From: a virus
Taxonomy: Duplodnaviria > Caudoviricetes
Virus record (IMG/VR): IMGVR_UViG_3300042358_000005
Location: 1 to 64,000 of that record
Length of the DNA: 64,000 nt
Direction: 5' to 3' (one strand)
The translations under genes and the position numbers were made by a program. Position 1 is the first letter of the stretch, and the number at the start of each line of letters is the position of its first letter. The notes beneath the pieces were generated by a model, which was not told the origin of the DNA, made no database searches, and saw only the letters and a list, made by a program, of their open reading frames with translations. Below are positions 1-9,176 of this stretch, one piece after another.

Positions 1-7
1 CATAATC

Positions 8-127
8 TTATTTGTTTACAGGTTTAGGTGTACATATATGTCCATCACTCCATTTAATTCCTGGAGGTGGTGTTGTTTCTGGTGAGCTGTACTTTGTACC
101 ACACTCACTACATTCAAATTTGTTCAT
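8..127 (-). CDS. Small Zn-ribbon-like protein (39 aa, MNKFECSECG...GHICTP); probable true start 127 rather than 259
   Basis: CxxC and HxC pairs; AT-rich leader before ATG at 127; the 259 start overlaps another ORF. Confidence 0.5.
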   Translation of the reverse strand: MNKFECSECGTKYSSPETTPPPGIKWSDGHICTPKPVNK

Positions 128-189
128 ATTATCTAATTTATTAATTAAAAGAATAAGGGCTCCTATTACAGAGCCCATATATTCCCCCC

Positions 190-336
190 TTAATAACCCA
201 GCTCTTGGAGCTGATTTATATTGGCTTCTACAATATACACACCCTGTGATATTGTACATGCAAATGCAATACTCATTGCAAATGCTAATTGTCTAAACTG
301 ATAAAACTCAGTTGGTTTCATTGTGATTGTTTTCAT
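190..336 (-). CDS. Hypothetical 48-aa protein (MKTITMKPTEFYQFRQLAF...LQELGY), absent from the ORF track
   Basis: Manual translation; preceded by the recurrent TCCTTAATAAC leader motif (344-354). Confidence 0.65.
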   Translation of the reverse strand: MKTITMKPTEFYQFRQLAFAMSIAFACTISQGVYIVEANINQLQELGY

Positions 337-362
337 TTCTATTGTTATTAAGGATTAATAAT

Positions 363-581
363 CTATTGAAAGAATTCTATACTAGTTGGTGTACCAGTTA
401 GTTTCTTATAAATCAATTGAGCTTTTGCTGCACCAATTGCAGTTTTATAAGCTGATAAAGCTCCTTGAGCCACTTTTAAATCTTTTGATGTGTGATATTG
501 ACTTGATAGTACATCACCAATCTCTTGTGTTACTTTGATTACATCTGTAACATTCATTGTTTTAATTTTCTTTGTTGCCAT
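363..581 (-). CDS. Hypothetical 72-aa helical protein, coupled to the upstream HNH-like gene
   Basis: ORF overlaps the end of 562..1344 on the same strand. Confidence 0.7.
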   Translation of the reverse strand: MATKKIKTMNVTDVIKVTQEIGDVLSSQYHTSKDLKVAQGALSAYKTAIGAAKAQLIYKKLTGTPTSIEFFQ

Positions 582-1344
582 GATTTTCTAATTTTCGTTT
601 TAATGTTAGTCTTTTTATTGTTAATTCTTTTAATTCTGGTGTTAATTCTTTAGTTGGTACTTTCACACAATAAGAAATATATGCATCATTAATCTCAAGT
701 GCATTCTTAGTATGTCTTTTTCTCATATATGTATTTAAAGTTTCTCTACGATGTTTAGATTTTCTAGATATAGATTGTTCTAACTTATATTTAGCAAGAC
801 GATCAGGATTTGATTTAATAGTAATCCATGTTTGTTTATGTCTACATTTTTTACATTGATTTGTATATGTTCTTCTTTCACCTTCTCTTATTGCTTTCTT
901 GAAATAAAAAACATTAATATTTTGTATATCTCCACAATTTGAACAACATTTAGATGTTATATCACCTTGGTTATTATAATATGGTTGAGGATAAAAGTTA
1001 ACATCACTCTCACATTTTATTTTCCATTTTAAATTATCTAATGAACAATCTAATACATTATTATTTATATGTTTTAAAGAATAATGATGATGTTCATCTG
1101 GTTGTTTTAACTTAAATGCATTTTTCATCAATGTAACAACAAAGGTTACCTTTGGTAAGTTAGTTTCTGACCATTTATCATATTGTATTTTTACTACACC
1201 ATGAGTACCTTGATTATATATAGATAAGATTGATTTATTGTAATGTTTATTGCCATTATTTAAATATCTATAATGAGAGTAAACTATTCCATCAGATGTA
1301 ATAGAATACCTTTTTTTTGTATCTGGTATAAACTTTTCTTTCAT
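562..1344 (-). CDS. NUMOD4/HNH-like homing endonuclease-type protein with a C-terminal CxxC..CxxC zinc finger
   Basis: RYSITSDGIVYS (NUMOD4-like), HINNNVLDCSLDNLKW (degenerate HNH_3-like), CSNC...CKKC. Confidence 0.6.
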   Translation of the reverse strand: MKEKFIPDTKKRYSITSDGIVYSHYRYLNNGNKHYNKSILSIYNQGTHGVVKIQYDKWSETNLPKVTFVVTLMKNAFKLKQPDEHHHYSLKHINNNVLDCSLDNLKWKIKCESDVNFYPQPYYNNQGDITSKCCSNCGDIQNINVFYFKKAIREGERRTYTNQCKKCRHKQTWITIKSNPDRLAKYKLEQSISRKSKHRRETLNTYMRKRHTKNALEINDAYISYCVKVPTKELTPELKELTIKRLTLKRKLENHGNKEN

Positions 1345-1370
1345 TGTTATTTAGTTATTAAGGATTAATA

Positions 1371-1404
1371 CAAAATAAAAAAGGCTACCATTTCTGATAG
1401 CCTT
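1371..1404 (-). terminator. Intrinsic terminator closing the RNA cluster
   Basis: Minus strand AAGGCTATCA-GAAA-TGGTAGCCTT followed by a T tract. Confidence 0.8.
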
Positions 1405-1540
1405 ATTGTTGAGGTTGGCACTAGTAAAACTCAAACCATAAAGTACTCAACACCTATCTTTGCGTAGATAGGACTTAACATTCGTGATGTGCAAACTACC
1501 CAATGTCTGTTACTGTGCTATTTGCGTCAAGTAACTGCTG
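1405..1540 (-). ncRNA. Candidate small structured RNA (unassigned)
   Basis: No ORF; stems GTTAC/GTAAC, CCTATCT/AGATAGG and TGTTGAG/CTCAACA between the tRNA-like gene and the terminator. Confidence 0.4.
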
Positions 1541-1609
1541 TGATTGAGACAGGATTCGAACCTGTGTGTAAGGATATATGTCCATCGCATGCCACTCTGC
1601 CACTCAATC
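1541..1609 (-). tRNA. tRNA-like gene with degenerate anticodon arm (isotype undetermined)
   Basis: Acceptor GATTGAG/CTCAATC+A, D arm GCA-GAGTGGCA-TGC, T arm ACAGG-TTCGAAT-CCTGT; anticodon arm only GGA-CATATA-TCC (6-nt loop); no encoded CCA. Confidence 0.7.
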
Positions 1610-1770
1610 ATGTTTTACAGTAGGTTATAAGGTACTCGTTAGTTAGACTTTCCCTTATTCCTTTATTAAACCTGTACCAATATTCTTTTTTATTTTCTGA
1701 ATGGAAATTGATAAGACATTCAGGGTAAATACATCTTACAAGAACTACCAAGTTCAACACATTACCTTCG

Positions 1771-2159
1771 TGGAGGTGGGGAGAATCGAACTCCCGTCCA
1801 AAATTAATTTAAATCATTACAATTTATACAGCTTTACGTTTCTTTAAACTCTTTACGTTAGAAGGGTCAACTGTGAAGTTGATATCCACCAGAATGTTTT
1901 TAAGGAATCATACAAACCTTCTATGGCAATTTTAATGTCTTTAGCCAGTGTTTGACAGATTTAATGTCTATGCAGCCATTTCTAGCTCTTCAACATTAGA
2001 ATTAATCAATGAGAAAACTTTGCTCATGTTAGCGTTAACTTGGTCAACATCTAACGAAATTACTTTGTTGTCATTTATTTAATTTCACCTTAGTTTTATA
2101 CAGTTATCTCTCTGTGCTGATTGTAATAATGTATTAACCTGTCAAAACCAGGCACCCCC
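1771..2159 (-). ncRNA. ssrA: tmRNA
   Basis: 5' GGGGGTGCCTGGTTTTGAC; 3' GGGAG-TTCGATT-CTCCC-CACCTCCA; acceptor stem with G3:U70; tag ORF 2072-1968 ending MAA*. Confidence 0.95.
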
Positions 2160-2257
2160 AATTTTGTAGGATATCGCTAAACCTACTATGAATGGCCTAT
2201 TCATATTCACACATTATAGTTGCATTCTAAACGAGAAACTATAGTATACGATTTTTT

Positions 2258-2675
2258 TTAGCACCCATCATTATAGCCTTGCAAGTTAGCCCTCGCTGCT
2301 TACTTAATGATTAGGGTCACGTAGTTGTACTTAAAAGGACTTTCATTAGTTGTTTACCACCAATTACTCTTAACTACTTGCTGAGAACTCATTCGCATCT
2401 TGGTAAATACAACACTTACCTATTTTTAACGTTGCTTGTTTCACCTTTCTCAAGGGGATAATGCGTCTACCATTACTGATAGTATCTTTATGTAAATAAT
2501 ATTTAGACCTTATACTGAACTAATCATGGTAGTATCTAATCTGAATTTACAAAGGTATTCAATGTTTAACCTATAGCTTCACACAGTTTATCAGATCTGG
2601 TGCTTTACACAGCTTAGCTATTTTATCTTTTATATCACTCTAGTGAGTTTTAAACTGACTACACTGATATGAAAC
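2258..2675 (-). ncRNA. Candidate large structured ncRNA (~420 nt, unassigned)
   Basis: ORF-free; many nested helices with G-U pairs on the minus strand and GNRA loops (CTATCA-GTAA-TGGTAG, CCTT-GAGA-AAGG); 3' helix ACCC..ATCATTA/TAATGAT-GGGT; boundaries approximate. Confidence 0.6.
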
Positions 2676-2731
2676 ATAAATATCCCTGCAAATATAATTC
2701 ACAGGGATAAATAAAACAAACAAACCACCAA

Positions 2732-4114
2732 TTATATTTTAATCTCTTGCTCTCCTACACCTTCTGTGTAGCTATAGATTCTCTCATCTTCAGTCACCTT
2801 GATCTGTTTACCACCTGTAGCAAGACATAAGTCTCTCAAATCATTATTGAATTCCATTAATGATACAGCATTCACCTTGTAAGGAAATGCTTCTGTATTA
2901 ATAGGGTCTTCTCCATCATTAATGATTAAGATTTCTGGCTTCTCTTGTGAAAGATCAACAATAAGGTTACATAGTTTATGATTAGCTATCTCATCAGCAA
3001 TGTATTCAACCATCTCAGCAACTTCTGTTCCACCACCATTAGGCTCATTAGAAAATGTTTGCCAAAATCTTATCACCTCTTCTTTATTGGTGATATGTTG
3101 GAAGTGTAACTGTTCTGGATCATGTACAAAGTAACTAAAGAACACTTCAGCTTCACCTCTCATCACATATTTGAACCTGTCTATTAATATAGCATTCACC
3201 CAGATTTGTTTCTGTTCTTCATGCATACTTCCAGAGAAATCTAATATAATGATGATCTTCTGAATCTGTTCTTTTCTATCAACTGGGACATTTACTGTCA
3301 AATCTTTAGTTAAGAACTTAGTTCTGAAGTTAGGAAACATCTTCTGATATAGGTCCATCATGTGCATTTGAGCATAATCTCTCATGATCATTTTAGAATA
3401 CTGATCAGAGTTAGCTACTATTTTCTCAGATATCTCTTTTTCCACCTTGAACTCATTACCAAACTTACCTACAAGAGATAGATGATTCATAATCTCCATC
3501 TTTTTATCCTTACTAAGTTCATTTAGTTCTAATTGTTCATTGATGTTTGGATCAGTGTACAAGCTTCTATCAAATTCTAATCCTTTCTCCATATCTACAT
3601 CATCATCATTACTTCTCTCACCATCTTCATCCTTATTCTGCAATTGCAAATAAATAGCAACAGCTTGTTCAAGAGGTGTGAATCCAGGGATATATTGACC
3701 ATAGATAGAATCAAATAAGTCTTTCTTCTTAGAATATTCAGCTTTGTCTCCATCACTAAGTGTATCAACATCCTTAAATCTATCAGCTAGGTAATCAGAT
3801 TCCTCAATCATCTTAAAATAACACACACGTGCTAGTTCTTTGATCATATCAATGCTCTCTTGCTTCTTAACATATCTAAGTTTCTTCTTGATCTCTTTAG
3901 ATGTTGGTGTGATGTAGTTGATTGGATCTTTAACAAACAAATTGCTATCATCATCTTCATAGTCTACAACAAATGAGTATGTTGACCAGCTATTTCTAGA
4001 CCAACCACCACCACCATATTTGCTCTTCCAACCTCCTGTACTCTTCTTAGGAGTATAGGTTGGGGTATAATAATCACCATAGTAATCATCATCCCATAAA
4101 CTCTTCTGTGTCAT
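2732..4114 (-). CDS. vWA (MIDAS) domain protein, partner of the MoxR ATPase
   Basis: ILDFSGSM (DxSxS), GGGT and IINDGED motifs; directly downstream of the AAA+ gene. Confidence 0.85.
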   Translation of the reverse strand: MTQKSLWDDDYYGDYYTPTYTPKKSTGGWKSKYGGGGWSRNSWSTYSFVVDYEDDDSNLFVKDPINYITPTSKEIKKKLRYVKKQESIDMIKELARVCYFKMIEESDYLADRFKDVDTLSDGDKAEYSKKKDLFDSIYGQYIPGFTPLEQAVAIYLQLQNKDEDGERSNDDDVDMEKGLEFDRSLYTDPNINEQLELNELSKDKKMEIMNHLSLVGKFGNEFKVEKEISEKIVANSDQYSKMIMRDYAQMHMMDLYQKMFPNFRTKFLTKDLTVNVPVDRKEQIQKIIIILDFSGSMHEEQKQIWVNAILIDRFKYVMRGEAEVFFSYFVHDPEQLHFQHITNKEEVIRFWQTFSNEPNGGGTEVAEMVEYIADEIANHKLCNLIVDLSQEKPEILIINDGEDPINTEAFPYKVNAVSLMEFNNDLRDLCLATGGKQIKVTEDERIYSYTEGVGEQEIKI

Positions 4115-5424
4115 TAGATGAATGCAGCTATTTGTAGGTTCTTAGCAAACTTATCTTTAGCTGCTGTAGCAGCTTTAACAAGTTGTGAATGCACATGTGC
4201 AATATCATCACCCACTGTTAATCCTTTGATGTCTGCTAGTTGTTTAGTAAGATCACCAATTGCATCCTTGTACATCTTCTCATCTTCTCTTGTTACCAAT
4301 GGTAAGTGTGTAAGAGTCTCAATACTATAAGTAATAGCTGAAGATAAGTCTCTAAACTTAATAGTAGCCTCGAACTTCTTGATCACTTCAGCAATCAATG
4401 ATGGTTTCTTAGCAAATTCTGCAATGAATCCTAATGATTCAGGACCACATTGATCATACACTTGATATGCTGTAACAGCCACACGAGGTGAAATGGTTAC
4501 ACCATTCTTAGCATATTCTTGTAATAGATAAGGAATCACTGGATCCACATTATCTACACCAAACTTAGATTCTAATAATCTATTGTATGATATCTCTGTG
4601 TAGTTATCCCATATAACATTCAATTCAAGAGGAAATCTTTCCATCAATGCTTTCAATGACATATTCTTAGAGAATTCATCACGAGTTCTATTAGTACAAC
4701 AGATGATGAACTTAGTGTTGATAGGAAATATCTGTGTACCATTTCTGAATACACCAGATGATAATATATCTTTCAATTGCTCTAAGATGAAATCTGGTGC
4801 ATCAAATAGCTCTTCGAACACCACATATTCATGGTTCATGAAACTATTCTCAACTAAATATTCAATCTTACCTGTTGATTCAAATGTTGGTATATCAAGA
4901 CCACCAAACAATCTATCTGTTGTCATACCTGTACCCATCGTAATGATGTAAGGATTGATTCCTTTAGATTGTAAGAAATCTAATGTCATCTCTGACTTAC
5001 CATGTCCACCTGGACCATACAATACAACATTCTTACATGTAGAGAATCCTACGTTTAAAATGTTTGCTGTTTTGTCCATGAATACGAACTTCTCTGTCTT
5101 TGTTGCTTTCTTTGTTGTTGTTTTCATTTTTTTCTTTGTTATTAAGGAATTTTGATTATTTAATTTAATTTGTTCTAAAACTTGTTCTATTGGTATTATT
5201 TCTTCTACTTCTTTAAGTACACAATCATGTGCTTCGAATATCCAACCTTGATGATGAAAGTCTGAATTTGATTCAATGTTTTTGATAAATTTATCAAGAA
5301 CATCTTCTCCCATATATCCATTCATTGATCCTGATTCACACCAGTTGTATGGTGTATCATATTCATCATTCCAATAACCTGTAGCTTTAAACTCTTCTTC
5401 TGTCTTTATTCTATATTTACTCAT
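4114..5424 (-). CDS. MoxR/RavA-like AAA+ ATPase with an extra ~99-aa N-terminal domain
   Basis: Walker A GPGGHGKS, Walker B VVFEE, sensor CTN, ALMERF arginine finger. Confidence 0.85.
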   Translation of the reverse strand: MSKYRIKTEEEFKATGYWNDEYDTPYNWCESGSMNGYMGEDVLDKFIKNIESNSDFHHQGWIFEAHDCVLKEVEEIIPIEQVLEQIKLNNQNSLITKKKMKTTTKKATKTEKFVFMDKTANILNVGFSTCKNVVLYGPGGHGKSEMTLDFLQSKGINPYIITMGTGMTTDRLFGGLDIPTFESTGKIEYLVENSFMNHEYVVFEELFDAPDFILEQLKDILSSGVFRNGTQIFPINTKFIICCTNRTRDEFSKNMSLKALMERFPLELNVIWDNYTEISYNRLLESKFGVDNVDPVIPYLLQEYAKNGVTISPRVAVTAYQVYDQCGPESLGFIAEFAKKPSLIAEVIKKFEATIKFRDLSSAITYSIETLTHLPLVTREDEKMYKDAIGDLTKQLADIKGLTVGDDIAHVHSQLVKAATAAKDKFAKNLQIAAFI

Positions 5425-5435
5425 AGCTTTGATAT

Positions 5436-5461
5436 AAAAAGAGAGCCATTACAGCTCTCTT
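5436..5461 (-). terminator. Intrinsic terminator
   Basis: Minus strand AAGAGAGC-TGTAATG-GCTCTCTT followed by Ts. Confidence 0.7.
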
Positions 5462-5491
5462 GTTAGTTATTCATTAATGATGTCAATTGGA

Positions 5492-5953
5492 TTAGTCTTC
5501 ATCATCATCTTCTTCTTCTTGTTGTTCACGAAGTTCTGATAATCCTTTAACAAGATTCTCTAATGCATCTCTAAGACCTGGAGGAAGAGAATCACCATCA
5601 ATACTCATAGATGATCTACTACCTTTTATCTTGTCTATTAAATCTTTAGGTATACCAGTCATGTCACCTTTCATATATTTCTCTAATGCTTGTTCTTCCA
5701 TTGATTCTATCTTATCTCTAAGATAAAAACCTGCAAGAATAACTAATTGAGAATAACTATACTCATGTAAGGCAGCTTCAATCATTTGACTAGCTGTACA
5801 ATCTTTCATGTTCTTATTCTCTTCATCCACTTTAAGTTCAAAGATGATATCTTTGGTCTTAGAGTTTAAATCATCCATATAGGATTCATTCACACCTAAT
5901 GCTTTATTGATCTTTTCTTGTGTGTGATCAAATGTAAAAATTGCTGTACTCAT
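5492..5953 (-). CDS. Hypothetical protein with acidic C-terminus
   Basis: 153-aa ORF with the leader motif abutting the ATG. Confidence 0.8.
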   Translation of the reverse strand: MSTAIFTFDHTQEKINKALGVNESYMDDLNSKTKDIIFELKVDEENKNMKDCTASQMIEAALHEYSYSQLVILAGFYLRDKIESMEEQALEKYMKGDMTGIPKDLIDKIKGSRSSMSIDGDSLPPGLRDALENLVKGLSELREQQEEEDDDED

Positions 5954-5965
5954 GTTATTAAGGAA

Positions 5966-6121
5966 TTATTGGTTTAACGTTTGTCTAACATCTATTGTTC
6001 TTTCTATTACAATTCCTCTTCTGAAATTATATATCACTTCAATGATCAACCTCTTAGATAGAATATGTCTATATGTATTGGTTGATGCTACTAATGTACC
6101 TCTGCTCACTCTAGTTCTCAT
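5966..6121 (-). CDS. Small basic hypothetical protein (probable start MRTRVSRG at 6121)
   Basis: ATGA overlap with the stop of 6118..6351. Confidence 0.55.
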   Translation of the reverse strand: MRTRVSRGTLVASTNTYRHILSKRLIIEVIYNFRRGIVIERTIDVRQTLNQ

Positions 6122-6351
6122 AGACAATGTATTATAATCATTGATAATAGATGTAATGCCACTAATGAATAGAAACATATCTTAAGCATTCTGTTTTCTT
6201 TCTTATAGATATTGATTAATCTATCAGCTATGTCTAATCTAGCATCTTTTAGTTTAAACAGCTCATCAGCTGTTTCTAATGCTTGTTGTTGCATATCTAT
6301 TAACTCATTCATTGAGTTTAATGCATCGTCTAAATTTCTTTCTTTTGCCAT
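6118..6351 (-). CDS. Coiled-coil protein with a C-terminal TM helix
   Basis: Heptad-like N-terminus, hydrophobic tail, leader motif at 6359-6369. Confidence 0.7.
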   Translation of the reverse strand: MAKERNLDDALNSMNELIDMQQQALETADELFKLKDARLDIADRLINIYKKENRMLKICFYSLVALHLLSMIIIHCL

Positions 6352-6369
6352 TGTGTTTGTTATTAAGGA

Positions 6370-6471
6370 TTAATCTTTAAATATTTTCTTTCCAAAGTAT
6401 AGAAATACTCTAGCTACAAGTAACCATAAGACTATGCTTATGATTACCTTCGCTATAAATTCCACTACCAT
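6370..6471 (-). CDS. 33-aa single-TM microprotein (MVVEFIAKVIISIVLWLLVARVFLYFGKKIFKD)
   Basis: Manual translation; TAATG coupling to the upstream ORF. Confidence 0.55.
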   Translation of the reverse strand: MVVEFIAKVIISIVLWLLVARVFLYFGKKIFKD

Positions 6472-6629
6472 TATTTCTTACCTATCATCATACCAATAAG
6501 AATTGGTAATACTATTGGACTAAAGATGTATGATGCTATTGCATAACCTTTCATATCATCTATCTTCTCGTAACTCTCTATCATCACACCTAGCATAACT
6601 AGATATGATATTATAATGTATGTTATCAT
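6471..6629 (-). CDS. 52-aa two-TM membrane microprotein (MITYIIISYLVMLG...ILIGMMIGKK)
   Basis: Manual translation; start overlaps the stop of 6629..6820. Confidence 0.6.
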   Translation of the reverse strand: MITYIIISYLVMLGVMIESYEKIDDMKGYAIASYIFSPIVLPILIGMMIGKK

Positions 6630-6820
6630 CATAATCCAATAAGATTATCAAAACAACTCTCTAACAAGAATGTTAGGTTTTGTCTCTCGTGATATAATAC
6701 ATCTAATTGCTCTTCAATGATATGAATGTTCGTATCATCATGTGCATCTCTTAAACTATCTAATGAATGTATTTCATTCTTAATAGTCTGTAATCTTTGT
6801 TCAATCATTTCTGTTCTCAT
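6629..6820 (-). CDS. Small coiled-coil hypothetical protein
   Basis: 63-aa ORF with leader motif at 6829-6839. Confidence 0.7.
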   Translation of the reverse strand: MRTEMIEQRLQTIKNEIHSLDSLRDAHDDTNIHIIEEQLDVLYHERQNLTFLLESCFDNLIGL

Positions 6821-6851
6821 TTTTGTTTGTTATTAAGGAGTTATTATATTA

Positions 6852-7232
6852 TTAGGCAGAGAGTCTTCTCTGCCATATTTCTCTAAACGCTTCTATCTCA
6901 TCAGATGTAAACCACATACTGTCTGTATTCATCACATTCTTACCAATCCACCAAGAATGTTGATTAAATACATCATATAGATTATCTATCTCTTGTTGTT
7001 TGTAATACTCTAACTCATTAAGATGATCAGACCATTCATCAATAGACCAATATTCATCATCACAACCATCATAATACTCTTGTGTATCATATGCTTCTTC
7101 TTTATGAATATATATAGATAACAACTCTTCACAAAGATCTCTTTGTCCTAATGTCCATTCATATCCTGGCATATCAAGATCTTCTAACCAAATATTAAAT
7201 TGTTTAAGCTTAGCTTCTAATATTTCTTTCAT
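6852..7232 (-). CDS. Acidic, aromatic-rich hypothetical protein
   Basis: 126-aa ORF with the leader motif abutting the ATG. Confidence 0.75.
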   Translation of the reverse strand: MKEILEAKLKQFNIWLEDLDMPGYEWTLGQRDLCEELLSIYIHKEEAYDTQEYYDGCDDEYWSIDEWSDHLNELEYYKQQEIDNLYDVFNQHSWWIGKNVMNTDSMWFTSDEIEAFREIWQRRLSA

Positions 7233-7248
7233 ATTATTAAGGAGTTTT

Positions 7249-7270
7249 AAAAAGGCCCTAAGAAGAGCCC
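7249..7270 (-). terminator. Intrinsic terminator
   Basis: Minus strand GGCTCT-TCTT-AGGGCC-TTTTT. Confidence 0.6.
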
Positions 7271-7277
7271 ATTATTA

Positions 7278-7496
7278 TTATACCAAACTATTTGCCTGAA
7301 TAGAACCTATTAATGTCCCAAGAGACAATACATCTTCTAATGAAGGAGTGTAATCCATTTCAATAGATAGAATAACAGATGTAATAGATGTAGATTCAAT
7401 ACTACATTTATGATTAGGAATAGAGTTTAATATATCAATTATATTATCTACACTCTTAATGTACAATAGTCCTACTGTGTGCTTTAATATTGTCAT
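7278..7496 (-). CDS. Hypothetical protein (probable start MTILKH at 7496)
   Basis: C-terminal part of track ORF 7278..7589; the upstream part is low-complexity. Confidence 0.5.
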   Translation of the reverse strand: MTILKHTVGLLYIKSVDNIIDILNSIPNHKCSIESTSITSVILSIEMDYTPSLEDVLSLGTLIGSIQANSLV

Positions 7497-7767
7497 AATG
7501 CTATATATATTATTTATGTTGTATGTATTGTTGTATGTTGTTTTGTATGCCATTTTAGTGTCTATGTCTCCACTGCTAAGTATAAACACACATAAAAAGT
7601 TTAAACTATTTTTAAGTTATACTTGATTATCAAGCATTTAACTAAATAAAAGTTTATTTCTCCCTCGTAAAAAGTTTTTATACCTATATATATAGGTAAA
7701 GATTCGTTTGATTAGTTATTACCCAACCAAACGATTCTCTCCCACCCCTTATATGAACCAATAGTGC

Positions 7768-8133
7768 TTAAAGCACTATCAATTCATCATCAGTAATAGC
7801 AACTTCAACAAGTGCTTTAATGGTAAGCTTAGCAGTATCATGCCAAACAAGACTTCTTTCTTCATTATGGATAGAGTATAATCCATCAGATGATTTAGAT
7901 AATGGATAGTTTAACAAAGTGCCCAATGAGATTTGTTTAGTTCTCAATAACTTTGATAATGGCATAGATACAATTGCAGTCTCCACTTTACCACTAGCAG
8001 TCTTAACTTTCAAGTAAACTTGTTTTTCATTATCCATTAAGTTGATTGCATCAGTTGCAATAGTTTTACCGCTAACTCCTGATAAATCACTTAATACTCC
8101 TACTCTTTCAAATGTTTTTTCTGTTGTATTCAT
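7768..8133 (-). CDS. Hypothetical protein, first gene of the leftward block
   Basis: 121-aa ORF with an A-rich Bacteroidota-type leader. Confidence 0.75.
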   Translation of the reverse strand: MNTTEKTFERVGVLSDLSGVSGKTIATDAINLMDNEKQVYLKVKTASGKVETAIVSMPLSKLLRTKQISLGTLLNYPLSKSSDGLYSIHNEERSLVWHDTAKLTIKALVEVAITDDELIVL

Positions 8134-8277
8134 TTTTCTGTTTTTTTATTGTGCGTTTAGTTGAATGGGGGATATCCCCAACCGCCAAAAAATAGGTGGG
8201 GTAGTTGGTTGGGATGGGTCTCTACAAGTACACACACGACAGGTTTCCCAATTTGGGAAAAAAAATTTGAAAAAAAA

Positions 8278-8310
8278 TTTGGTGGGTATATGAAATATGT
8301 ACTACCTTTG
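8278..8310 (+). promoter_or_regulatory. Bacteroidota primary-sigma-type promoter
   Basis: TTTG (8278) - 21 nt - TACCTTTG (8303); a second -7 box TATCTTTG at 8437-8444. Confidence 0.55.
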
Positions 8311-8467
8311 GTGGGTGGGTGGGTATGTCTATATTGAAATATGTTATCTTCTACGCTTATGTATAGAAAAGTATTCATAATATAGCAATGATATAAAATA
8401 TTTTATCTATTATGTTCATAGTATGTTTTTATTATATATCTTTGTCAATAGATTATGAAACTAAATT

Positions 8468-8872
8468 ATGGAACCAACGAAGATTATCATACAAAAACTT
8501 AAGAAGGATGTATCTACAGATATAGCACTAGCAGAGAAATACTATTCTATTCTATCAGCTATAAACAATCTTCATCTTACAGAAAGAGAGATACAGCTTA
8601 TAGCCTTTACATCAATCAAGGGTAACATTACATATGCTAATGTGAGAGAAGAGTTTTGTAAGACATATAATAGTACATCTCCTTCTATTAATAACATCAT
8701 CTCTAAACTTAAGAAGGTAGGAATATTTATTAAGGAGAATGGTAAGGTGAAGGTGAATCCAATCATAGTGATTGATTTCAAGAATGATTTAACATTAGAA
8801 ATAAAACTAGTACATGGAGAAGCCATCAACAATGACATTGAAGGAGTGGATCATCAAGAGGATGTCAATTAA
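8468..8872 (+). CDS. Winged-HTH DNA-binding protein
   Basis: LTEREIQL...SINNIISKLKKVGIF..NGKVKVNP, a wHTH-like pattern. Confidence 0.6.
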   Translation: MEPTKIIIQKLKKDVSTDIALAEKYYSILSAINNLHLTEREIQLIAFTSIKGNITYANVREEFCKTYNSTSPSINNIISKLKKVGIFIKENGKVKVNPIIVIDFKNDLTLEIKLVHGEAINNDIEGVDHQEDVN

Positions 8873-9176
8873 CATGGTGATATCTGAGAAGGTGATTGAT
8901 CAAGTGATAACACACCAATTCGATTCTGCCAATGACGCTCTTAATACAAATGATAGCTTAGAGATCTCGGGGTTTGGTAAGTTTTTGTTTAATACAAAGA
9001 AGGCCAATACAAGATACGCAAAGCTTCTAAGTATAAAGCAGTCATATGATAACATTCTGGCTGATCTATCTATATCAGATAAGAAGAGGCACTCAACAGA
9101 ATTAAGAATGCAGACAGTGTTAACAGATATCAAAATATTAAAACCAAAAATATATGAGCCTAGGACAGATATATGA
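8814..9176 (+). CDS. HU/IHF-like DNA-binding protein
   Basis: LEISGFGKF signature; IHF-like genes are typical of crAss-like phages. Confidence 0.65.
   Translation: MEKPSTMTLKEWIIKRMSINMVISEKVIDQVITHQFDSANDALNTNDSLEISGFGKFLFNTKKANTRYAKLLSIKQSYDNILADLSISDKKRHSTELRMQTVLTDIKILKPKIYEPRTDI

Follow-up and report, generated by a model that had tools for sequence, protein, structure and literature searches.

Some of the early messages of bacteriophage T4 have a short site on or next to the start codon through which a single factor, RegA, controls them all, and RegB of this phage cleaves a short motif in early translation-initiation regions. The small RNAs CpxQ and DapZ derive from 3' untranslated regions (3' UTRs) and pair with leader regions. 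It is not known how the early genes of crAss-like phages are expressed and shut off, and the early transcripts of the one studied phage, phi14:2, which are made by its virion polymerase, showed no common upstream motif (bioRxiv 10.1101/2020.03.07.982082). Here we describe an 11-base motif, TCCTTAATAAC, that stands just before the ATG of some of the early genes within bases 1-64,000 (the window) of the 118,934-bp IMG/VR virus record IMGVR_UViG_3300042358_000005. For the string in either orientation, the searchable literature yielded unrelated matches only. Most likely the motif marks these early messages for joint control, and our tentative reading is that it does so as an operator at the RNA level.

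The string TCCTTAATAA occurs eight times in the genome against 0.47 copies expected, and none of 100 shuffled sequences reached eight. All eight copies are on the minus strand between positions 345 and 8736, with no further copy on either strand of the whole genome; in the plus-strand reading the exact 10-mer TTATTAAGGA is found at 345, 1355, 5139, 5955, 6360, 6830, 7234 and 8727. Seven copies stand in front of the start codons given in Table 1, where open reading frames (ORFs) were called by a simple ATG-only rule. A first-pass annotation of the window had already placed the motif upstream of these seven early-gene starts, which the exact count and the strand reading bear out; the distance to the ATG, given there as 0-10 nucleotides (nt), is in fact 1-11 nt, and the eighth copy (8736-8727) had been missed. 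The latter is present in only about nine of 24 relatives that carry gene 8468-8872, which is best explained by the coding sequence, so that this copy is probably an incidental by-product. The annotation was right that no plus-strand late gene carries the motif (across the whole genome, neither plus-strand nor late genes do), and also in suspecting that a one-mismatch copy within the transfer-messenger RNA (tmRNA) arose by chance, as positions 1897-1906 are not conserved in relative L009. It had proposed to look for positional enrichment across the genome and for conservation in relatives; the first is evident from the confinement of all copies to 345-8736 on one strand, and the second was found as follows.

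When the MoxR-like protein (4114-5127) was used as query, 63 IMG/VR loci were retrieved, 33 of which share the neighbouring genes of the window. The motif is present in all 33, with three to eight sense copies each. In five whole relatives (111-114 kb) the copies are restricted to one 10-12 kb stretch and to one strand, the exceptions being one conserved inverted copy and a single stray one. The 33 loci comprise 164 unique motif contexts, which share ancestry and are not to be counted as independent events; an ORF starting with ATG follows within 40 nt in 162 of them and within 14 nt in 150. The proteins encoded downstream of the copies fall into at least 34 non-homologous families. At orthologous sites the motif is invariant and its flanks are only 40-60% conserved (upstream majority identity). 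TCC directly precedes CTTAATAA in 152 of 170 copies, and the base at motif position 11 is mostly C (71%) or T (22%). An invariant motif with scrambled flanks in front of so many unrelated families points to selection: judged from these comparisons, the motif is real, strictly conserved and under purifying selection. It is absent from more distant phages sharing only the MoxR-vWA pair, and a 14-mer scan of IMG/VR gave mostly single chance matches, the multi-copy loci belonging to the same lineage. The protein encoded by gene 8468-8872 has more than 1,600 homologous clusters in metagenomes, which indicates that the lineage is very abundant.

Table 1. Motif copies and other features of the window.
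Feature	Position	Strand	Remarks
Motif copy, TCCTTAATAAC	344..354	-	8 nt before ATG 336 of the 48-amino-acid (aa) gene g190 (190-336)
Motif copy	1354..1364	-	10 nt before ATG 1344, HNH-like gene 562-1344; 16 nt after terminator hairpin 1404-1381
Motif copy	5138..5148	-	11 nt before internal ATG 5127, start of MoxR AAA+ domain; in frame (S-L-I-T) in ORF 4114-5424
Motif copy	5954..5964	-	1 nt before ATG 5953, gene 5492-5953; most widely conserved motif-bearing family
Motif copy	6359..6369	-	8 nt before ATG 6351, gene 6118-6351
Motif copy	6829..6839	-	9 nt before ATG 6820, gene 6629-6820
Motif copy, T at position 11 (TCCTTAATAAT)	7233..7243	-	1 nt before ATG 7232, gene 6852-7232
Eighth copy	8727..8736	-	antisense in plus-strand gene 8468-8872, codons F-I-K-E; no ATG nearby
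Anti-motif GUUAUUAAGGG	187..197	-	motif complement with one G-U pair; overlaps Gly-Tyr-stop codons of g190
g190 transcription unit	148..356	-	motif, 48-aa ORF, anti-motif, terminator; predicted closure by motif:anti-motif helix
Intrinsic terminator	157..176	-	end of motif-bearing block
Intrinsic terminator	1381..1404	-	after tmRNA/tRNA module; motif copy directly next
Intrinsic terminator	5439..5461	-	after gene 5492-5953; next gene (ATG 5424) without motif
tRNA, anticodon unreadable	1541-1609		same non-coding stretch as tmRNA; Rfam
tmRNA	1768-2159		non-coding stretch of ~1.3 kb; Rfam
Small gene, predicted winged-helix-like fold	8468..8872	+	candidate regulator only
Giant virion RNA polymerase homologue, 4328 aa	46395..59381	+	DFDID at residue 3441; related to phi14:2 g066

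Across the clade, the gaps between motif and ATG are 1, 2, 8-12 and 14 nt, with a few at 3 and 7 nt and a mode at 8 nt; gaps of 0, 4-6 and 13 nt are absent and one of 3 nt is rare. The gap switches between the short and the long class within orthologous genes that keep the same N-terminus. In Flavobacterium johnsoniae, initiation is determined by adenines at -3, -6, -12 and -13 (PMC6847099). At gaps of 1-2 nt the AAUAA of the box falls on -3 and -6, and at gaps of 8 and 11 nt its A-A falls on -12/-13; with gaps of 3-6 nt, -12 and -13 would each be C or U, and with a gap of 0, -3 and -6 would be U. The gaps that the adenine rule disfavours (0, 3-6) are thus the ones that are missing or rare. 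Among 130 unique motif leaders, adenine occupies -3 in 93%, -6 in 86%, -13 in 79% and -12 in 63%, and the other 132 genes of the genome have the same adenine profile. Gene upstream regions are A-rich genome-wide (A at -3 in 71%; an A-box at -11 to -14 in ~60%), G is depleted upstream of all genes, and a Shine-Dalgarno (SD) sequence precedes none of them. Since the spacing obeys the adenine rule, at least the 3' half of the box would lie within the mRNA and be seen by the ribosome; the motif is probably inside the translated leader. Leaderless messages starting 2-3 nt after the motif, suggested by the two gap classes, are set aside because the adenine rule explains the short gap as well as the peaks at 8, 11 and 14 nt.

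One copy has a further peculiarity. In ORF 4114-5424 (minus strand), the MoxR-like ATPase is fused in frame, via the motif, to a 99-aa upstream ORF. Across relatives the gap at this site is 8, 11 or 14 nt in 17 of the 20 distinct contexts listed, which keeps the frame if the upstream ORF is open. In the several contexts that were read by eye, some relatives have this frame open, whereas in L037 a stop codon precedes the motif; in L042 and L043, gaps that break the frame likewise point to separate genes. The arrangement suggests that the ATPase may be made as long and short isoforms.

The first-pass annotation had stated that the motif is not an SD sequence, and this holds: its UCCUU is not complementary to the anti-SD CCUCC but has the same sense as the 16S tail, ACCUCCUUUCU in Bacteroidia (PMC7797042), in a genome devoid of SD sequences. 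The identity with part of that tail could also be taken to mean that UCCUU imitates the 16S 3' end and, as a ribosome-docking enhancer, engages the platform pocket or another ribosomal site, the more so as at short spacing UCCUU occupies the SD position, -7 to -12. Such mimicry is extremely unlikely. UCCUU is found at -7 to -11, -14 to -18 or -17 to -21 from the ATG, a register that shifts by 7-10 nt between the spacing classes, even among orthologues; the identity extends over no more than 5 nt, and nothing in the 16S tail corresponds to AAUAAC, which is conserved just as well. In addition, the gene-start variants CCC, CTC and ATC retain CTTAATAAC and lose UCCUU, and the phage encodes no bS21.

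The source phage is crAss-like (Crassvirales) on the basis of a muzzle match and a virion RNA polymerase (vRNAP) with the DFDID signature. ORF 32057-37264 matches the Pfam crAss muzzle family crAss_MUZ (E 5e-31), and the catalytic part of the 4328-aa ORF aligns with the vRNAP g066 of Cellulophaga phage phi14:2 (tblastn E 7e-15) and with 133 crAss-like records. Within the clade that carries the motif, the portal protein is 86-89% identical and the vRNAP only 25-50%; full-length vRNAP identity is ~35-50% in G001 and G004 and 25-29% in G005-G007, and the virion proteins encoded beside it diverge to the same degree. No motif enrichment is seen in the outgroup G011 (portal 75%), whose vRNAP is 39-48% identical to that of this phage. 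The motif is thus invariant where the vRNAP diverges and absent from a genome with a similar vRNAP, and on this distribution it is independent of the vRNAP. It is unlikely that an invariant 11-mer is read by so variable a polymerase; a conserved accessory factor could still do so. The vRNAP and its neighbours (G001, G004-G007, G011) do not follow the relatedness order of the portal, and the vRNAP module appears to have been replaced or to evolve very fast.

A complement of the motif, here called the anti-motif, overlaps the end of g190 and is followed, after 10 nt, by terminator 176-157. Genome-wide, sense RNA contains no other full complement of the motif, and there is none in the non-coding RNA region 1365-2731. 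The anti-motif is present in all 26 relatives examined, as GGGUUAUUAAGG(A/G)GG, and is exact (..GGA) in most. The three non-coding bases after the g190 stop codon read G, G, then A or G. The sole variation is A/G opposite U1 of the motif, which keeps the pairing, and C/U at motif position 11 stands opposite G. All evidence on structure is predicted. The g190 RNA folds at -65 kcal/mol (z -5.7), closed by the motif:anti-motif helix, and in a consensus fold of 20 relatives this closing helix is kept, with 100% of cells paired. The other helices of the g190 RNA show compensatory changes, with 21 double-changed cells against 6.2 in shuffles, none of 500 of which reached 21. In the isolated 3' fragment of g190 the anti-motif is single-stranded and directly precedes the terminator hairpin, and duplexes of this fragment with the seven leaders have energies of -12.9 to -16.5 kcal/mol against -5.3 +/- 2.3 for shuffles. 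A messenger as structured as this is unusual, yet g190 also looks protein-coding. In its most specific form, the 11-mer would be a shared address read by the 3' end of g190, which would pair with every box and switch the early regulon on or off. On these models we consider this improbable; if true, it would mean a phage regulon wired through one antisense seed, with a regulator that belongs to its own regulon.

Four findings favour reading the motif at the RNA level, as an operator in the leaders of a set of early messages: the rule that its spacing follows, its constant proximity to the ATG, the absence of a link to the polymerase and the conservation of the complement. The box would lie in the mRNA, immediately preceding the AUG of early cistrons without translational coupling to an upstream gene. 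Its 3' half, AAUAA, would supply the adenines favoured by SD-less, Bacteroidota-type ribosomes, on -3/-6 where the box lies right next to the AUG and on -12/-13 where 8 or 11 nt of A-rich spacer separate the two, and the full 11-mer, including the unusual UCCUU, would serve as a shared tag. Through this tag, one trans-acting reader may control translation or stability of the set, about seven cistron heads here and three to eight per relative. The one concrete candidate for such a reader is an RNA, namely the 11-nt complement that g190, the final transcript of the block, carries at its 3' end; a protein reader would be equally possible. That the motif is transcribed and read as RNA is what we infer, together with the identity of the reader. 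Among the alternatives offered by the first-pass annotation, a site on the mRNA for a phage translational regulator is now the best reading, owing to the spacing rule and the conserved complement. The anti-SD mimic or translation enhancer has lost ground for want of a fixed register and of bS21, and a vRNAP start is weakened by the behaviour of the motif towards the vRNAP and by a spacing that implies a transcribed motif.

Several observations weigh against an RNA-level operator. No candidate RNA-binding protein that might serve as reader was found, and a search for the RegA family (PF01818) gave no match in the genome, with control genomes equally silent. Because the contexts are linked by phylogeny, shared descent could account for part of the spacing rule. 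Of the 11 anti-motif bases, nine belong to codons (Gly-Tyr-stop). The closing helix has no compensatory double changes: nine of its 11 pairs are invariant, and the other two vary on one side in a wobble-compatible manner. The whole g190 RNA is, moreover, predicted to pair the anti-motif in cis, in competition with any action in trans. Finally, among genes separated by at least 25 nt from the preceding one (uncoupled genes), a terminator-like hairpin lies upstream of 26 of the 56 with the motif (46%), where it precedes the motif, and of 34 of the 170 without it (p = 2e-4).

This association with terminators fits a promoter, and so does the position of the motif genes at the heads of small gene clusters. 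About one in five genes of the block carries the motif (~25% of its uncoupled genes), and most of the others are tightly coupled, with a median gap of 4 nt to the preceding gene. The main rival explanation, to which we give a smaller though real chance and which we regard as unlikely, is that the motif is an early promoter or initiator specific to the phage; as a compact DNA signal, it would start transcription of each early unit. Its reader would be the vRNAP, an accessory protein of the latter, or the host RNA polymerase once a small, conserved phage protein, for instance the product of gene 8468-8872, has redirected it. The motif is strand-specific, limited to one gene block and enriched right after strong terminators regardless of the gene: behind the terminator of the tmRNA module, whichever gene comes next carries it, 7-21 nt past the T-run, and the copy before ATG 7232 lies ~11 nt after a hairpin plus T-run at ~7275-7250. 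A pyrimidine followed by A is found after the motif (C/T 93%). The Bacteroidota sigma-A pattern (TTTG near -33, TAnnTTTG near -7) is absent at the motif copies though it does occur elsewhere in the genome (minus strand 2720 and 114877; plus strand 43756 and 83950). The AT-rich pre-early promoters of the P23-45 vRNAP offer a precedent (PMC10770324), and no early promoter is known so far for any crAss-like phage (bioRxiv 10.1101/2020.03.07.982082).

Other features are difficult to reconcile with a promoter. The motif is invariant while the vRNAP and its neighbours fall to 25-40% identity, and G011 lacks it in spite of a similar vRNAP. The clustering of contexts within 14 nt of the ATG, at gaps that obey the -3/-6/-12/-13 rule, makes a downstream (leaderless) start unlikely, and a promoter or initiator would need its start site no further downstream than the middle of the box. 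Conservation upstream of the motif is limited to ~4 A/T-rich bases. Other post-terminator genes, at ATG 5424 and ATG 126, have no motif. The genome encodes no sigma factor (no sigma-70 region 2). The early transcripts of phi14:2 do not share an upstream motif either; its early-gene upstream regions contain nothing comparably sharp, only loose TTTAAAAACAA-like strings. The candidate regulator encoded by 8468-8872 is conserved wherever a motif-clade locus spans its site; identities are 69-86% apart from a single locus, with an overall range of 47-86%. Its AlphaFold model, of modest confidence (pLDDT 59.5), gives weak winged-helix/MarR matches, and a weak match to the N-terminal domain of T4 MotA (E 0.03) is not evidence.

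The motif might also be an RNA processing site, at which a host or phage endoribonuclease would cut polycistronic early RNA and release short, defined leaders. It does occur at cistron boundaries, in the leader and in sense orientation only, and in predicted local folds it is mostly unpaired (P(unpaired) 0.67-0.81 at five of the seven copies); by analogy, the cleavage sites of T4 RegB would be comparable. This is nevertheless quite improbable: no candidate nuclease came to light, cleavage within the box would strip the adenines from -12/-13, and the copies right after terminators have little RNA upstream of them.

Within 25 nt of the motif, breakpoints of homology between relatives are 4-fold more frequent than expected (75 against 18). 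Together with the many unrelated families behind the motif across the 33 loci, this could mean that it is a recombination anchor only, a micro-homology for cassette exchange with no role in expression. As an idea of the first-pass annotation, the anchor finds a partial echo here, since the box could plausibly serve for exchange of cassettes as a by-product. The enrichment itself is expected at any gene boundary, where breakpoints cluster; 11 nt is very short for homologous exchange, no recombinase is linked to the motif, and strict conservation at orthologous sites amid scrambled flanks, along with the spacing rule, indicates selection on expression. An anchor without other function is thus very unlikely.

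Other repeats at gene starts were observed as well. A second, longer junction motif, TTTAAAAACAAATAAGATTATG, is found on the minus strand (window 1-22; genome 111,700-118,934). At no fewer than 12 small minus-strand genes its end coincides exactly with the ATG, usually with the stop codon of the previous gene inside it. The two ends of the record have 17 nt in common, and both fall within a copy of TTTAAAAACAAATAAGATTATG, which accounts for this overlap. In relatives, TTTAAAAACAAATAAGATTATG is interspersed with TCCTTAATAAC units, and a similar string follows a hairpin at phi14:2 g006. Four loci on ~65-kb contigs of unrelated phages with only the MoxR-vWA pair in common (L039, L044, L047 and L051) carry a three-part, promoter-like repeat, GCTATACAC - CACGGACTTA - N17 - GATAATATA, before several genes. 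In locus L055, a 117-kb contig of another large phage, AGTAGT abuts the ATG of at least six small genes, as another lineage-specific start-codon motif.

The minus-strand gene run that contains the motif extends from ~8400 down to 1 and, if the record is circular, onward from 118,934 down to ~86,300; the motif is specific to the first part of this block. A long divergent intergenic region (8134-8467) with C-rich repeats (CCCACCCACCCACC, CCCAACC, CCCCACC) and T-runs separates this leftward early block from the rightward genes and might be a genome end or a replication origin. The Rfam scan of positions 1-9000 returned the tmRNA and one tRNA only; on the minus strand at 2681-2720, a Bacteroidota-type promoter pattern (TTTG..TAtaTTTG) that overlaps the terminator hairpin after the vWA gene faces this tmRNA/tRNA stretch. 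A generic sigma-70 scan gave fewer matches than in shuffles. In a pattern scan the genome has a few promoters of the Bacteroidota type TTTG-N-TAnnTTTG, which together with the SD-less, A-rich leaders make a Bacteroidota-like host likely. A near-identity search with the region gave no match among isolated phages. The sole match of the capsid protein among them is a Leptolyngbya phage, so distant that the host cannot be deduced from it.

A single invariant 11-mer that defines a set of early cistrons provides a handle on the early regulon of uncultured phages, on the control of translation in Bacteroidota, where SD pairing is unused, and on the reader, be it RNA or protein. Should the motif be a promoter instead, it would be a first candidate early promoter for this phage order.

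Compared with described systems, the box resembles the Kozak-like signals of Flavobacterium johnsoniae (PMC6847099) in its adenines at -3, -6, -12 and -13 within an SD-less leader. The F. johnsoniae rule is a loose bias of composition, whereas the box is a fixed 11-mer with a C-containing pyrimidine block, present in about a quarter of the uncoupled genes of the block. With the class promoters of phage RNA polymerases (the P23-45 vRNAP, PMC10770324, and the T7 group), the motif shares its shortness, its strand and lineage specificity, its restriction to one gene class in one orientation and one temporal block, and its conservation in relatives. Unlike these promoters, it does not co-vary with the polymerase, and it lies within 14 nt of an ATG in 150 of 164 contexts, at a gap set by translation.

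The predicted structure of the g190 3' end is akin to CpxQ and DapZ in having an accessible, single-stranded seed before a terminator hairpin and several targets in whose ribosome-binding windows it would pair. It differs from them in that one identical site is common to all targets, the seed has bases in common with a stop codon, and the source mRNA is itself a target, with predicted pairing in cis. As with the operators of T4 RegA, a short site overlaps or abuts the initiation region in a subset of early messages. The RegA sites are AU-rich and loosely conserved, whereas the box is a nearly invariant 11-mer whose reader may be an RNA.

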